A program made the position numbers and the translations under genes. DNA of 64,000 nucleotides from Eledone cirrhosa (taxonomy: Eukaryota). The notes beneath the pieces were generated by a model that was not told the origin of the DNA, did no database searches, and saw nothing but the letters and a program-made list of their open reading frames with translations. Of the stretch, positions 6,353 through 54,230 are shown in pieces; within the stretch, counting starts at the first letter, position 1, and every line of letters begins with the position of its first letter. The DNA is taken from the NCBI GenBank assembly GCA_964016885.1, contig OZ024740.1:309938001-310002000 (forward strand), read 5' to 3'.

Positions 6353-6656
6353 ATATATATATATATATATATATATATATATATATATATATATATATTA
6401 AGAGAGTAAAACAAAGAAGCCTTCAATACATAAAAAGTCTTTATTAGCCGACAATGTTTCGTCCTATTAAGGACTCATCAGGTCAATTAAAACAACAAGA
6501 AGTAATATCGGCAGATACAAGTATATTGTATATTGTAAATATTATTATTATATTATTATTGTGACATCTATATTGTTTGTGTAATTTAACCGGAGATTAT
6601 CTATTCTATTATATTGTATTATATAGTATATAATTGTATTATTCATTATTATATGT

Positions 6657-6790
6657 GCTACTTATAATTATATCATATTATTACCTATGTACTACTTATA
6701 ATTATATCATATTATTACCTATGTACTACTTATAATTATATCATATTATTACCTATGTACTACTTATAATTATATCATATTATTACCTCA
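6657..6790. repeat. 34-bp tandem repeat, about 4 copies
   Basis: Unit TACTTATAATTATATCATATTATTACCTATGTAC. Confidence 0.9.
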
Positions 6791-7252
6791 TGTATATTGG
6801 GTAGATGTATTAGTATTATTATTATTATTATTATTTTCATTCCTATCATGCTTATTTTTATATTCAAATTCTTAATAAGGTTTAATTTGTGCAGTTGAGG
6901 ATGGATGTGTGTATTGTTGTATGTGTATGTGTGTGTGTACGTGTGCGCACATATATACATATGCATATTGTATCTTTTGATTTTTATTGTAATTTTAATG
7001 TTGGTAAAGGTATATTATAGTATATTATATTGTATTATATATAATTCCTGCTCTATATAACCACCTTTGTTTAGCTCTAGTTTTTGCTTTGGACTATATT
7101 TGTAATATGGTTCTTAGTGTTATATACATCCTTAGTAATTTTTATAATATATTTTTATTATATATTTTTGTAATACTTCAGTGTATGTACACTCCATATT
7201 CTTCGGAGCTTCCGGCTTGTATCTGCCGATATTACTTCTTGTTGTTTTAATT

Positions 7253-7290
7253 GCCCTGATGAGTCCTTAATAGGACGAAACATTGTCGGC
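7253..7290 (+). ncRNA. Minimal type I hammerhead ribozyme (inverted copy at 6447-6484, - strand)
   Basis: GCC-CUGAUGA-GUCCU(UAAU)AGGAC-GAAA-C(AUU)G-UC^-GGC: intact core, 5-bp stem II, GUC cleavage triplet, stem I GCC/GGC. Confidence 0.85.
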
Positions 7291-49300: not shown

Positions 49301-49640
49301 GATAAATTTGCCTGAATATTATTTTGTGTTCTGTAAAGCAACGTGAAAAAGTAAAGCAACTAAGATAAAACAGTAACTAAAAAAAGGGGAAAATATGAAG
49401 TATAAAAACAACATGGAAGTATAAAATTAAGATGAGCGGGTAAGAAATGGACGAAAGTCAGACGAGTGTTCTATTTATTTTCTTATATTGGCTGTACAAG
49501 GGGAAACGTTAATACGAACAGTTACTTTTTAAAGACATAGAACATTTTATCCGTTCTGTCTTACTGTAAAGAATTTCGTACAATTATACCGATATACGCT
49601 TATTGGTGCTGGAATGATTATTGAAACAATACGGTACGAT

Positions 49641-51770
49641 GGCATCAGGTCCTTCCCAGCTGCGGAGGTGCTGATGGTCTCCGACCAGGCCACCTCAGGA
49701 AGTTGATATCCCTCCTCTCTGCTGAGGCCGGGCGCCGCCTTCTGAGTGCAATTGTGGGGCCCTGGACCCTTAGGCACGAGGCCTCTTTTTATCACCGCTC
49801 TAAGGAAGAAAGAGGGTGGCATAAGCCCCATTACTTGCGACAATGTCTTCCGGAGGATGGCTGCCAAGGTGATATGCAAGTCCGTAACAGACGAACTGTA
49901 TGAGGAGTTTAGTCCGGTGCAACTGGGTGTCAGCGTGTCAGGTGGATGTGAGGGAGCCGCTCACTCATGCAACCAGGCAGTTCTTCAACAGCTGCCCATC
50001 GGAACCGGCATCCAGGGACTCCAGGCACCTCATTGTCAAGCTTGACATGAGGAATGCCTTCAACTCTTTACGCCGGGATCATCTGCTCGAGGCCTGCCTC
50101 AGTCGAGCCCCCTATGCCTAACTGCTGGCCTACCTGTCTTATGGAGCCCCGAGCATGCTTCCCGCTGCTGATACGGTCATACCCTCGGCTACTGGGGTCC
50201 AACAGGGCGACCCTTTGGGACCGCCCCTGTTCGCCCTTATTATTGACCACATCGCCCGGAGTATCACGGCCCCCCTAAACTTTTGGTGTCTGGATTATGC
50301 TACGTTGGACAGGCCCGTACGGACGGTCTGCCATGTCCTTCAATCGGTGGTTCCTGCCCTGGCGGGAATCGGCCTCCAAGTCAACTTGGCCAAGTCGGAG
50401 GTGGTGAATATCAGCCTCGATGTTGCGAGCTTTGCAGTCTCCGTCTTGGACGTGCAGTCCATTCTCCGCCAGGTTCAGGTTACCCCCAAAGAGGATGTCC
50501 TCATCCTCGGGTCATTGATCCACCTGCCGACCATCCGCTCCACCATCAGGTCCAGGCTTCAACGGCTCCAGACTCTCACGAGCCGACTGGGCTTGATTGA
50601 CGGCCACCCAGCTCTCTTTCTGCTGAAGAACTGCTTCGCCATGCCGAAGCTCCCCCATACACTCCGCAGCGCTCCGTGGTACACCCAGACATTCCTCCTC
50701 GCAGACCTCGATACTTGTATCCCAGCAGCAGCCTAGGAGATATGCAACGTACAGTTTGACGACACAGGGTGGCGACAGGCCACTTTACCTGTCAGGTATG
50801 GTGACCTTGGCCTCCGGTCCCCGATCTCACTAGCTTTGCCGGCGTATCTTTCGTCGGTAACTTCGTGCCGCGTCCTCGTCAGCAGGGTTCTTAAAAACAC
50901 AACAGAAACTTCTGTGTTCAGAGAACGTGAGGCGGCCTGTGAGACGTGGACCGGTTGGGACTTAGCCCAGTAGTCGTCTCTCCTCCTTCTCCCCCTGTTG
51001 ACGTCAAGTCCCTCCAACGCACTTGGAGTGCCATCCAGAGCAGCCTGGCCTCAGACAGGCTCACGCGCCAGCTCGACCAGCACCGCCTTGCTTGTTTTCG
51101 TGCGGCCTCCAAACCCCAGAGTGGTGCCTGGCTCCATTCCCTGCCCTCCTTCTCCACTGGCACGTAACTAGACAACCATAGCCTACGCATCGGCGTTTCC
51201 CTGAGGCTCGGCCTCCAGATCTGCCAGCCACACCAATGTCGCTGCGGTTCCACCGTGGACTCTTTCGCCCTCCATCCGCTTTCCTGTCACCACGCCATGC
51301 TGCCTTCAACGAGGTCATTAAGCATGGTTTGGACGCTTCCTTTCCCATCTCGAGCCGGTGGGCTGGATCGAGGGGACGGCAAAAGGCCAGATGGCATGAC
51401 CATCTTCCCGTTCCGCGGTGGCAAACCCCTCGTCTGGGATGCCACTTGCACCGACACTTTCTCCAGCCGCAACCTGGGGCCGTCTGCGACTGACCCAGAT
51501 TCTGCTGCACGTCGGGCTGAGGGGGGGGGGGGGGAACTCATCAAATACCGGTCGCTCTCCGACAGGTTTGCGGTCGTTCCCCTGGCAGTGGAAACTTCTG
51601 GTGTCCTCGGCCCCAGGGCTACCTCCTTACTCACCACCCTAGGCGCTGAGCTGGTCAGCCGCATGTGTGAGCCCCGCGAGTTGGAGTGGCTCTTCCAGCG
51701 CGTCTCCGGGGAAACGCCTTCTCCATTCTGTCCATCGGGGCTGTGGGTGGGCCCCATCGCGTACCGCTGT
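49641..51770 (+). mobile_element. Decayed CRE-like non-LTR retrotransposon (RT + CCHC + restriction-like endonuclease), 5'-truncated
   Basis: A GC-rich block with DGLRPGHL, KKEGGISPI, QLGVSVSGGCE, KLDMRNAFNS, GVQQGDPLGPPLF, a decayed YLDD (CLDY), CRCG...HPLSC and KRPDG...WDATC.D...KY...PLAVETSG. It has several frameshifts and stops. Confidence 0.9.
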
Positions 51771-53630
51771 AGTTGTTGTAGAAGAAACAGGAAGACAACA
51801 TCTAATCTAATATGCATACATACATTTATTATATTATATTTTTAATATTGACATAGAAACGTTTTGATCTCCATATTATGTTTCGTATTTTTTAACCGCG
51901 TCTGCATTATTCCTGTCTAATATGTAATTTTCAATCGAGTATTCTACATAGTAGTAAGCAGATTACACTGCTCCTATGTCTCACAATTTTAACTGCTGCT
52001 ATTCTGTAAATATTTGAAGAATGTGTTGTTGATTTCTACACTAGTATGTTTAATGCACACGATAACCGAATGAGTCTGACAACATAATTTCGTATTTGCT
52101 GAATTATACACAATAAGAATTAAACAGTTCAGTATAAAATTTACAAGTATATGATTCAATATAAACATGTATAAGCGATGTAACATATATTGAAATATCC
52201 ATTCGAGACATGAGTATAAGTTCATATCTAATACAAATATTTCGAACAATCCGCAAGGTGTAGAATCTAACATATTTTGATAAATGTATTGGGATAACAT
52301 GACTGCACATGATAAATGACATCCCTTGTGCTCGTTTGACTCGTGTCTTTGGGGAAATAGGATAATATATTTCATGTGATTTGTTATTCAGTTGATACAA
52401 TTGCGAAAATGGAGAAAAATGTATTAAGGTTGAGACAGTTTTTAGATTTGTAACTAGATTCCATAACCTTCATGTGTACAATTGTAATAAACTAAATACT
52501 TCCTATGTTCTAATACTTGACAAGTGCATGCAATTAGAAGCAATTCCGACAGGGGACTCACGAAATTGCGATAAACCAAATAATGAATATTAGTTTTGCT
52601 GTTGCAAAGGGCTTACAACTAAATTACTGTATTAGGTCTAGTTTTCAAGTATTAGCTGAATCTTCATTTTAAATGGAATGTTGGCGTATCAAGTTGTTTC
52701 ATATTAGGAAAACAATCCTATAGGAGTTTTGGTGTCTAATTAACACGTGAACATACCAGCAATCTATACCTGTTCGAAATCTATTTATTTTGCGCACTGC
52801 CAATAAGAATTATGCCGAAAGGCATGTTATTCGTATTAATCATTTTGCATTAAAATATCTTTATGATAAAATAGATTTCATCAAAGCTACATTTTAGTTA
52901 ATCATGGAAAACTTAGTCAAAAGTATAGGCATTCAACCCATTACCCGATTAAAATATTCTCTTGAATCTCAACTATTTCAACAACAACTTGCCTATGACT
53001 TAAATAACTGAAACCCTTACTTCGGTTTTTGAAGCTGTTTTATTTTCTCTTAATATTTTGTTAAATAACATTCCTCATCAAACAAACCTATGCCTAAAGT
53101 CATTCCAAAAATGTTGGTGTGTTTAGAAATATGTTAGCCAGTGTTCCTATTTCCATACAAAGTCAGATTGTGATATGTAATAAAGGTGATGTTATTTGAA
53201 ACAGCTCATGAGTTCAGGATGAAAATCAGGTAGCCGGTGTTGTTATTGAATTTATTATTGTTGTTAAATTATGTTTAATATATTTGTTGGGGCTATATGG
53301 TGAATTCCATTTAATATAGTTAACCCATGAAATACGGACATGCTGATTATGTGATATTGAAGAGTTCACATATGAACAATTAGTCCAATGGATAGATAGA
53401 TACATAGATAGGCAGATAGATATCGAGAAAAGCATAGATATACAATTAGATATATATCGTATTAGCAAAATCTCTCTCTCTCTCTCTCGCTCTCTCTCTA
53501 TCGTCCGAAACGTTAAGACCCTCTTCCTGCTATATCAAGCGTTAACCTAATATATCCCTTCCATATACTGTACCGATTGTGTTGTTATTTCTGTTTAACT
53601 TTTACACACACACACACACACATATATATA

Positions 53631-54230
53631 TATAATCAAGGTTTAGAAAATAAGAAAAAAGTTTCAAAATAAACTTCATCAAATTCACTGTACTTGCTAT
53701 GGTTACCTTTACCGAATCGGTTTCGAGTCTCAAAAATAAATGGATAGTCCTTGCGGGCTTCCATTGAAAAGATAAACTCTCGTCAGAAGGTTCTTTTCAC
53801 TCGGAGAATATAAAATTCCCGAGTTCAAATTACGAACTGGCGCTATTCAAAATTGTTCCCGAGATGAGAGTGAATGATGTGGAAGCAATTCTGTCCAGTG
53901 CCGTGTGCAAAGATAGAAGGCAGAGGCAGGGAGGTGAATCCACTACCACTATAAATAGCAGTAGTCAAAACGACTAAATTTCATCTCGACCAGGGGGAGA
54001 TTAATAATAATAAAGTATACATATCCATTCACGCAAAAGAAGAATAGCGGCACAGGTATTATCCAACCATATGCCAATGTGGTTCAATGGCAGGTTAATA
54101 AATTAACGAGCCAGAACATTTATAATCAAGAGTTAGCAAATAAGAAAAAGTTTCAAAATAAATTTCAAAAAATTCACTGTACTTACTATGGTTACCTTTA
54201 CCGAATCGCTTTCGAGTCTCATAAATAAAT
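53631..54230 (-). mobile_element. Second locus of the ~490-bp hammerhead unit (about 1.2 tandem copies)
   Basis: Reverse complement of 35325-35835; TATAATCAAG...GGTTACCTTTACCGAATCG.TTTCGAGTCTCA recurs at 53631 and 54121. Confidence 0.88.

Follow-up and report, generated by a model that had tools for sequence, protein, structure and literature searches.

The stretch analysed here (the window) comprises 64,000 nt of the genome of the cephalopod Eledone cirrhosa (GenBank assembly GCA_964016885.1, contig OZ024740.1, positions 309,938,001 to 310,002,000 of the forward strand). It contains eight repeat families with hammerhead ribozyme motifs, named below by their positions in the window, alongside Penelope-like element (PLE) remnants. 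A first-pass annotation had described these families as unrelated, non-autonomous, retrozyme-like elements that are self-cleaving and copied by PLE enzymes.

On the evidence of linked open reading frames (ORFs) given below, families 7253, 37569 and 41844 are the pseudo-long terminal repeat (pLTR) ends of autonomous, protein-coding PLEs of the Hydra clade, and their copies in the window are 5′-truncated fold-back stubs. Family 7253 occupies 7216–7440 on the plus strand as a pLTR with tail, whose hammerhead (7253–7290) is predicted to be cut after 7287 and behind which a (TA)n run lies, with an inverted 5′ pLTR copy at 6398–6521 on the minus strand, in whose hammerhead (6443–6487) the first stem I pair is mismatched. 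Family 37569 forms a tail-out pair of pLTR stubs at 37373–37637 with hammerheads on the minus (37441–37404) and plus strand (37569–37606). Family 41844 is present as a fold-back, 5′-truncated 3′ untranslated region (UTR) with pLTR at 40406–41959, again with one hammerhead per strand (40521–40451, minus; 41844–41914, plus).

The other five families are non-coding units of about 320–1,310 bp, which are likely non-autonomous, retrozyme-like PLE derivatives. Family 9049 (unit ~1.31 kb) lies at 9000–9213 on the minus strand, with the hammerhead at 9122–9049 and a predicted cut after 9054; its tail-out second copy (9804–9997, plus) has lost the 5′ strand of stem I. Family 12322, with a 319-bp unit, spans 11684–12510 and contains one intact hammerhead with a U3-A8 core (12322–12371, plus), a degenerate copy at 11844–11888 and a truncated one near 12160–12195, both on the minus strand. 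Two tandem copies of family 31397, 883 bp apart, fill 30344–31620 on the plus strand. The first has a degenerate core, and the hammerhead of the second (31397–31503) combines a long stem II with a stem I of just 2 bp, compared with 4–5 bp in intact family members; this copy was picked up by none of the descriptors used. Family 34388 (unit ~470 bp) is found at 34067–35200 as one inverted and two tandem copies, all with intact hammerheads (34189–34147, minus; 34387–34429 and 34860–34902, plus). The 486-bp unit of family 35675 lies at 35328–35829 on the plus strand (hammerhead 35675–35759) and ends in (TA)n, and a second insertion at 53635–54230 on the minus strand (hammerhead 53791–53705) is preceded by a truncated partial-tandem copy.

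At all eight sites we recovered the layout previously read from the sequence, i.e., stem I, CUGANGA, stem II, GAAA, a self-complementary stem III, NUH and stem I′. The type I core (C3 U4 G5 A6 N7 G8 A9 and G12 A13 A14 between three helices) was found in every family, with 12322 having UUGAUAA as its core strand, a compensated U3-A8 version; the core pair A15.1-U16.1 and H17 were likewise present in all eight. Stem III is a perfect palindrome at six sites and of odd length with an unpaired center at 7253 and 35675, in keeping with the earlier description of mostly palindromic stems. No cross-family match was obtained by blastn among the eight loci at E<0.01, which upholds their mutual unrelatedness. 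The statement that each hammerhead has a second copy held for homologous sequence in all eight cases and for an intact hammerhead in only four (34388, 35675, 37569 and 41844); the second copy of 7253, at 6481, has the stem I mismatch, and those of 9049, 12322 and 31397 are truncated or degenerate. Among the 150 of 165 Rfam matches listed, Hammerhead_1 matched only the 7253 pair (31.7 and 31.5 bits; gathering score 34) and none of the five short families. Rfam microRNA matches in the window were rejected as microsatellite and hairpin noise.

Searching the window with descriptor A yielded 14 loci, against a mean of 0.7 and a maximum of 3 in 30 dinucleotide shuffles built in 500-nt blocks. The strictest descriptor gave four loci versus 0.025 (200 shuffles), and the looser descriptors B and C gave 15 versus 2.0 and 19 versus 3.3. 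To this the analysis added hammerhead-type motifs that had not been listed before, at 15370, 17565, 30118, 31808, 63889, 57238–57283 and 39350.

The richness in hammerheads is not peculiar to the window, which is typical of this 3.0-Gb, (TA)n-rich genome. In a sample of 39 evenly chosen 10-kb stretches (390 kb in total), a descriptor requiring a palindromic stem III found 31 motifs, compared with 0 in each of five shuffles, and the same descriptor found 11 in the window, about twice the sample density. When stem III was left unconstrained, it was self-complementary in 26 of the 30 sampled motifs with a C3-G8 core. An exact pattern covering a single subclass, with short stem II and an AYATRT stem III, had 88,481 matches in the genome versus 659 for the reversed control. 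If the 390-kb sample is representative, we estimate a load of ~2.4 × 10^5 intact-looking motifs (Poisson range ~1.6–3.4 × 10^5). A set of 367 motifs, taken from a biased selection of 1.8 Mb of retrieved DNA, fell into 34 clusters, 22 of them with two or more members; at least 22 descriptor-selected multi-copy families keep a canonical or U3-A8 core. Candidate copies numbered 1,812 for family 7253, 1,977 for 9049, 1,951 for 12322, 1,963 for 31397, 1,108 for 34388, 1,582 for 35675, 824 for 37569 and 463 for 41844. For each family we scored 40 candidates and fetched the best 30 as loci, on which the counts below are based.

We then considered the helices themselves. The eight stem IIIs have predicted duplex energies of −2.3 to −20.1 kcal/mol, compared with 0 to −2.0 kcal/mol as hairpins, consistent with an architecture of the dimer type. 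In two natural tandems, the double-hammerhead fold was predicted to lie 16.5 and 9.2 kcal/mol below two monomers. Compensatory changes, one of the checks proposed earlier, could be detected in families 34388 and 41844, though they are few and occur among related copies. In 27 distinct, similarity-picked copies of family 34388 (one of 28 was omitted for an insertion) the covariation score was 0.117 versus 0.060 (reached in 1/500 shuffles), with one stem I pair appearing as GU, UG, AU and CG. In family 41844 (27 of 29 distinct copies, two being omitted for deletions) it was 0.146 versus 0.127 (0/500 shuffles), with 97.7% of cells pairing and three pairs changed on both sides.

The label non-autonomous fits the five short families and has to be given up for 7253, 37569 and 41844, whose hammerheads share a unit with a reverse transcriptase (RT) carrying a C-terminal GIY-YIG domain (loci L181 and L183, L188, and L184, respectively). 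In L181, an inverted copy is followed by pLTR, ORF and pLTR, and the distance of 4,760 bp between the hammerheads defines the unit of family 7253, of which L183 holds a second ORF-linked copy. The best 40 copies of this family are 100% identical over 146 nt. None of its 30 loci has an ORF within 1.5 kb upstream, because the 3′ UTR is ~1.8 kb long. The order pLTR-ORF-pLTR recurs in L188 for family 37569 (unit ~2.5 kb), where an ORF end lies 186–198 nt upstream of the hammerhead in 4/30 loci, and in L184 for family 41844 (unit ~3.8 kb), where an ORF of the same family was found upstream at 89–100% in 14/30 loci and has its end ~0.9–1.2 kb away in 13 of these 14. An ORF in locus L189 was rejected as parent of 37569, as it differs from that in L188, and was treated as another Hydra element.

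The proteins of all three families contain DKT, and those of L183 and L184 the CxCX5C linker, the features that define the Hydra clade (PMC8557442) and therefore place the three families in it. This assignment was made from motifs and by-eye comparison with reference sequences. The position of RWK is occupied by RWR in L188 and RWH in L181 and lies outside the frame in L184, and the Pfam GIY-YIG match of these proteins is weak and below the cut-off. Among named homologs, the one with the highest identity to a PLE protein of this genome comes from Octopus bimaculoides, at 55% across 54% of the query.

For the five short families, same-strand copies recur at fixed spacings, namely 319 bp for 12322 (7/11), 486 bp for 35675 (6/9) and 1,302–1,312 bp for 9049 (4/4). 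Spacings were 418–562 bp for 34388, which has a variable microsatellite, and 859–883 bp with one of 1,224 bp for 31397. Tandem units are thus present in 9049, 12322 and 31397, and back-to-back intact hammerheads in tandems of 34388 and 35675. The longest ORF starting with ATG in the five units encodes 28–95 amino acids, blastx gave no match to our PLE set, and no PLE ORF recurred in the 30 loci of each family; sense PLE ORFs were sporadic, upstream in 0–2 of 30 loci and of varied families and offsets. The GC content is 34–41%, below the limit of 50% given for retrozymes. Predicted circular monomer folds are strongly self-paired in three of the families (z −3.5 to −9.1), that of 34388 being boosted by an internal inverted repeat, and unremarkable for the 884-nt and 1,309-nt units (z −1.7 and −1.8).

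A long array was detected in locus L323 (G000:C2:208901500-208911400), in which ~21 head-to-tail 319-bp units are inserted in the 3′ UTR of a PLE of the 37569 family and the array extends past the end of the fetched stretch. We rejected the array as the pLTR of the adjoining PLE, because the ORF of that PLE is 88% identical to the 37569-family element, which makes the array an insertion. Among distant relatives of 12322 (L007:1902-1945, L227:604-645 and L324:5477-5520), cores of the U3-A8 and of the C3-G8 kind both occur, and the palindromes are altered. Sequences of family 34388 (window 34060–34545) were also seen in contigs of two other organisms, mostly at 90–95% likeness, so this family may predate a species split.

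Coding and non-coding families share their insertion anatomy. The length of common upstream sequence differs widely from copy to copy, i.e., 5′ ends are variable. Within 1.5-kb flanks, 83 of 240 loci had an opposite-strand copy upstream and none had one downstream, so that inverted copies point tail-out and never tail-in. Six families have a terminal (TA)n no more than 400 nt past the cut site in 26–30 of 30 loci, compared with 33% of random 400-nt windows, and it stands at one or two preferred distances; the (TA)n after 12322 and 34388 is internal to the unit and was excluded as a terminus. For the Hydra-type families 7253, 37569 and 41844 the full set of partial tandem, inverted 5′ copy, tail and insertion at (TA)n was found, and the anatomy agrees with what has been published for PLEs (PMC8557442). 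It also agrees with the two RT start sites that explain the PLE tail (PMC11167929).

We therefore assign a probability of about 0.85 to the reading that the eight motifs are minimal type I hammerheads at the 3′ ends of PLE insertions, three of them belonging to coding Hydra-clade elements and five to short units likely copied in trans by PLE enzymes. These results support the proposed link to PLEs, the size and diversity of the population and its dimer-type arrangement. A PLE protein with RT and GIY-YIG domains would nick (TA)n DNA and start reverse transcription just downstream of the hammerhead, which would produce 5′-truncated, partial-tandem and fold-back copies. Two hammerheads in one tandem transcript would pair through their palindromic stem IIIs and cleave in dimeric form, probably with low activity or assisted by protein, releasing unit-length RNA; most genomic copies, being single or inverted stubs, would be dead ends. 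The description as self-cleaving has to be tempered, because just one of nine Xenopus dimer constructs cleaved (Li, Clavereau and Pollet 2026, bioRxiv 10.64898/2026.07.22.740005) and insertion of an anole PLE in vitro was not impaired by ribozyme mutants (PMC11167929).

Several observations weigh against this reading. The loci are the best 30 matches per family and some are two halves of one insertion, so that counts are not independent, and such a selection could overlook autonomous parents of the five short families. The five units have no DNA similarity to the four autonomous PLEs tested, bar one 47-nt match (E 3e-5), and family 31397 has inverted copies in 0/30 loci. Stem II of family 37569 consists of 2 bp plus a mismatch only, and the L323 array keeps an intact motif in only 5 of 20 scored units. 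The covariation concerns few pairs in related copies, and relatedness inflates the score in a way that the controls ignore. Finally, the predicted dimer folds are 2.8 and 6.5 kcal/mol less stable than the unconstrained minimum.

A further PLE of the window bears on the function of the motif. A remnant of a family that we call PLE-A, comprising the RT end, GIY-YIG and 3′ UTR/pLTR, lies at 38026–39588 on the plus strand. A long-ORF copy has the motifs DKG and GPKF, which places the family outside Hydra. PLE-A has 21,359 protein candidates in the genome with open frames of up to 923 amino acids, and ten long-ORF copies are 96–98% identical at the nucleotide level. No canonical hammerhead was found in its pLTR by descriptor. 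About 400 nt past the stop codon, we instead identified a scaffold in which stem I is followed in turn by CAGUUGA, a U bulge, a stem II closed by G-C, GAA, a palindrome, A and stem I′ (39350–39385, plus strand), and a subfamily copy of it near 5600–5635. Typical copies retain C3, G5, G8, A9, G10.1-C11.1, GAAA, the palindrome, H17 and stem I, with U4 and A6 replaced (U4A plus A6U) in 35 of 41 motifs of protein-selected loci. The corresponding pattern matched 3,274 times in the genome versus 0 times for its control, the first 100 matches listed being nearly all CAGUUGA. Among 99 matches with U4, most were CUGUUGA and ~15 canonical; at least one canonical match (L365) is homologous to the PLE-A pLTR, another (L378) is not. 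A pattern for other A6U families (10,492 matches versus 610) was discarded as uninformative, because many of the listed matches fall in stem II of a canonical family.

Among the closest metagenome relatives, four had 3′ sequence; two of these carry CUGACGA, one has a U3-A8 core and one gave no match in the scan. The sister family PLE-B mostly has CUGAUGA. The CAGUUGA variant is thus derived, since relatives carry A6U-only, canonical or U3-A8 cores. Most likely, the PLE-A hammerhead is crippled, judging from its core, and the helices may have been kept either by selection or merely by recent descent; a conservation profile across subfamilies was discarded, as choosing copies by pattern biases it. 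We propose only tentatively that the lineage went stepwise from CUGAYGA via CUGUUGA to CAGUUGA with the helices kept, leading to a new cleaving core, perhaps metal- or protein-assisted, or to a non-catalytic signal selected for the PLE enzyme. An AG/GTAA sequence resembling a 5′ splice site follows the hammerhead in PLE-A (~39397–39410), family 35675 (35756–35765) and PLE-B (57190–57180); introns in PLE pLTRs are known.

In pairwise mutagenesis of a type III hammerhead, double mutants of CUGA were poorly active except for the C3-G8 swap (PMC9901934). Natural variants of the core include C3U/G8A and A6C, the latter with low activity in Mg2+ and a better one in Mn2+ (Perreault et al. 2011, PMC3088659; PMC7151607). 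PLE-A resembles these in being substituted within the CUGANGA strand and differs in that U4A plus A6U is fixed in thousands of genomic copies. Hammerheads with A6U or with U4A plus A6U were not found in the passages and supplements searched, nor did our literature search for degenerate or inactive PLE hammerheads return anything.

PLE-A speaks for the possibility, which we rate at clearly less than even odds, that the hammerheads are largely passengers or non-catalytic landmarks, with a fold retained to signal binding or initiation to the PLE protein and with cleavage dispensable for spread. The family has reached thousands of young copies with a doubly substituted core of the poorly active kind, insertion in vitro was unaffected by ribozyme mutants (PMC11167929), and Naiad PLEs lack canonical hammerheads altogether (PMC8557442). 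However, the 22 or more multi-copy families, descriptor-selected as they are, retain a canonical or U3-A8 core, the U3-A8 swap preserves catalysis, and such cores also occur in relatives of PLE-A, in this genome as well as in other samples.

It is unlikely that every family represents a non-autonomous retrozyme with RNAs that, once self-cleaved, circularize and are amplified as such. The five short families do occur in tandem, with one hammerhead per unit, low GC content and, in three cases, strongly self-paired circular folds, and the ~21-unit array would suit this view. On the other side, three families belong to coding PLEs, copies are mostly single or inverted, and two of the folds are unremarkable while that of 34388 owes part of its stability to the inverted repeat. 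Moreover, the motifs are of the minimal PLE type, not of the canonical loop-loop type of coral retrozymes with a helix I of 6 bp and a helix II of 4 bp (PMC7229834), which, by helix size, is not found in the five families. The size of 150–450 bp given in the 2020 paper fits the 319-bp unit only; four units fit the 51–972 bp of the 2026 preprint, and the 1.31-kb unit falls outside both ranges.

Still less probable is that 3′ ends of autonomous PLEs account for all eight families, the five short ones among them, with the copies that bear the ORF lying outside our sample. Family 7253 is autonomous even though ORF-free close upstream in all of its loci, and just 30 of 1,100–2,000 candidates per short family were examined. 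Against this stand the recurrent tandem spacings of 486, 319 and 1,302–1,312 bp, which mark complete units too short or too devoid of ORFs to encode an enzyme. Chance matches in AT-rich, microsatellite-rich DNA, for which only the background of 2–3 loci per 64 kb with descriptors B and C speaks, are refuted by the shuffle and reversed-pattern controls, by the self-complementarity of stem III and by conservation of the motifs within multi-copy families.

The preferred reading, hammerheads at the 3′ ends of PLE insertions with the short units copied in trans, describes a known kind of system with new PLE and retrozyme-like families; it requires no new class of element. Hammerheads in PLEs, their opposite-strand pairs, the presence of many families in one genome and the PLE origin of retrozymes have already been published. 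Minimal hammerheads were described in the pLTRs of metazoan PLEs, with many families and 2,000–9,000 motifs per genome, opposite-strand pairs, the U3-A8 variant and low dimer activity (Cervera and de la Pena 2014, PMC4209133). The motifs reported here resemble them in being type I with short stem I and palindromic stem III, in the number of families, in the U3-A8 variant, and in that copies are mostly single and truncated, with opposite-strand pairs 100–700 bp apart. Unlike them, the stem IIIs are often longer (6–12 nt), and the load is far higher, although the descriptors differ; no octopus was found in the one of two supplementary files of that paper that was searched.

With the Hydra clade (PMC8557442), the coding families share DKT, CxCX5C, the C-terminal GIY-YIG, (TA)n targets, a hammerhead near the 3′ end, partial tandems, an inverted 5′ copy and a tail. 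Hydra-1_Obim of Octopus bimaculoides (2,507 bp) is listed there with a hammerhead (Craig et al. 2021), and the L188 element, at ~2.5 kb, is of similar size. The three families are set apart by their hammerhead sequences, and the units of 3.8 and 4.8 kb surpass the typical ‘<3 kb’ because of their long 3′ UTRs.

The paper that defines non-LTR retrozymes counts >6,000 motifs in a coral, where they form 16 families, and 126,247 motifs in the axolotl (Cervera and de la Pena 2020, PMC7229834). Animal retrozymes have been argued to be non-autonomous PLE derivatives, a phylogenetic test being limited to vertebrates (bioRxiv 10.64898/2026.07.22.740005). The five short families are like retrozymes of both papers in that they are non-coding, have a low GC content, form head-to-tail units that each hold a type I hammerhead, and coexist with PLEs; they differ in their minimal PLE-type hammerheads, in units of up to 1.3 kb, and in that most copies are dispersed stubs with 5′ inversions. 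Chlamys MRC1 (PMC8557442) is similar in having non-coding, PLE-moved units that form pLTRs and head-to-tail multimers, but MRC1-type elements match their autonomous partners at the 3′ end, whereas no partner was found for the five units. Among cephalopods, the repeat annotation of O. vulgaris counts 31 recently active Penelope-like families, the word ribozyme not occurring in the part covered, and the giant squid paper reports 235 Rfam hammerheads; a literature search that reached few subscription papers found no cephalopod hammerhead survey.

What is new is the very high hammerhead load and a young PLE family with U4A plus A6U. Hammerheads in PLEs may process tandem transcripts, be dispensable, or be parasites of the element. 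With ~2 × 10^5 motifs, at least 22 families and a doubly substituted core in a successful lineage, this genome provides a rich test set, in which young autonomous Hydra elements stand beside young non-coding units of the same insertion anatomy. The model that retrozymes derive from PLEs, argued mainly from vertebrates, is thereby extended to a cephalopod, and if a new core or a non-catalytic fold in PLE-A is confirmed, nature would have run an experiment on the function of hammerheads in PLEs.

Where four PLE remnants had been noted in the window, tblastn gave five of the GIY-YIG type, none of which is the parent of a named family. Besides PLE-A, these are a PLE-B remnant (57130–57899, minus; 55% amino acid identity to PLE-A), whose hammerhead has decayed from a family in which the core is canonical, and three of the Hydra type, namely one at 55047–55847 (minus) unlinked to a named family, one at 28103–28811 (plus) and a short one at 33069–33300 (plus). 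The motif at 57238–57283 was rejected as a second CAGUUGA family; its relatives mostly have the canonical core, which points to decay. The RT remnants at 18886–20514, 45481–45879 and 50122–51842 had no blastp match to the PLE set and were not counted as PLEs; non-PLE retroelement remnants extend over 18886–20514, 45478–46034 and 50122–51845; Pfam RVT_1 matched the first of these and, below the cut-off, also the third.

Four additional hammerhead families were identified. One is intact with stem III ACCACUGGU (31755–31815, minus), one has stem III AUAUAUAU and A9C in the window copy (30113–30168, plus), and one lies in a fold-back unit at 17440–17779 with G5A in the window copy (17528–17571, minus). 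The fourth (15329–15373, minus; 29 matches) has a non-palindromic stem III formed by a 4-bp hairpin with an 8-nt loop and might cleave as a monomer.

An abundant short fold-back family beside (TA)n (6163–6349, 41998–42123, 58773–58910 and 62091–62219) holds the 3′ half of a hammerhead only, i.e., GAAAC, a long hairpin and GUC, with no upstream CUGANGA strand in the 22 of 42 copies listed. In another fold-back family (39734–40215 and 58015–58263; 28 matches), CUGAYGA, stem II and GAAA are conserved and stem III and stem I′ are not clear; it possibly represents another topology or a decayed founder. A dispersed repeat of ~190 bp at 1071–1270, 9448–9632, 24710–24898, 26694–27011, 43913–44480 and 60344–60530 looks like a short interspersed nuclear element (SINE) and presumably resembles octopus SINEs. 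Between (TA)n runs at 11381–11534 lies a 150-bp near-perfect hairpin, possibly a miniature inverted-repeat transposable element or a fold-back stub.

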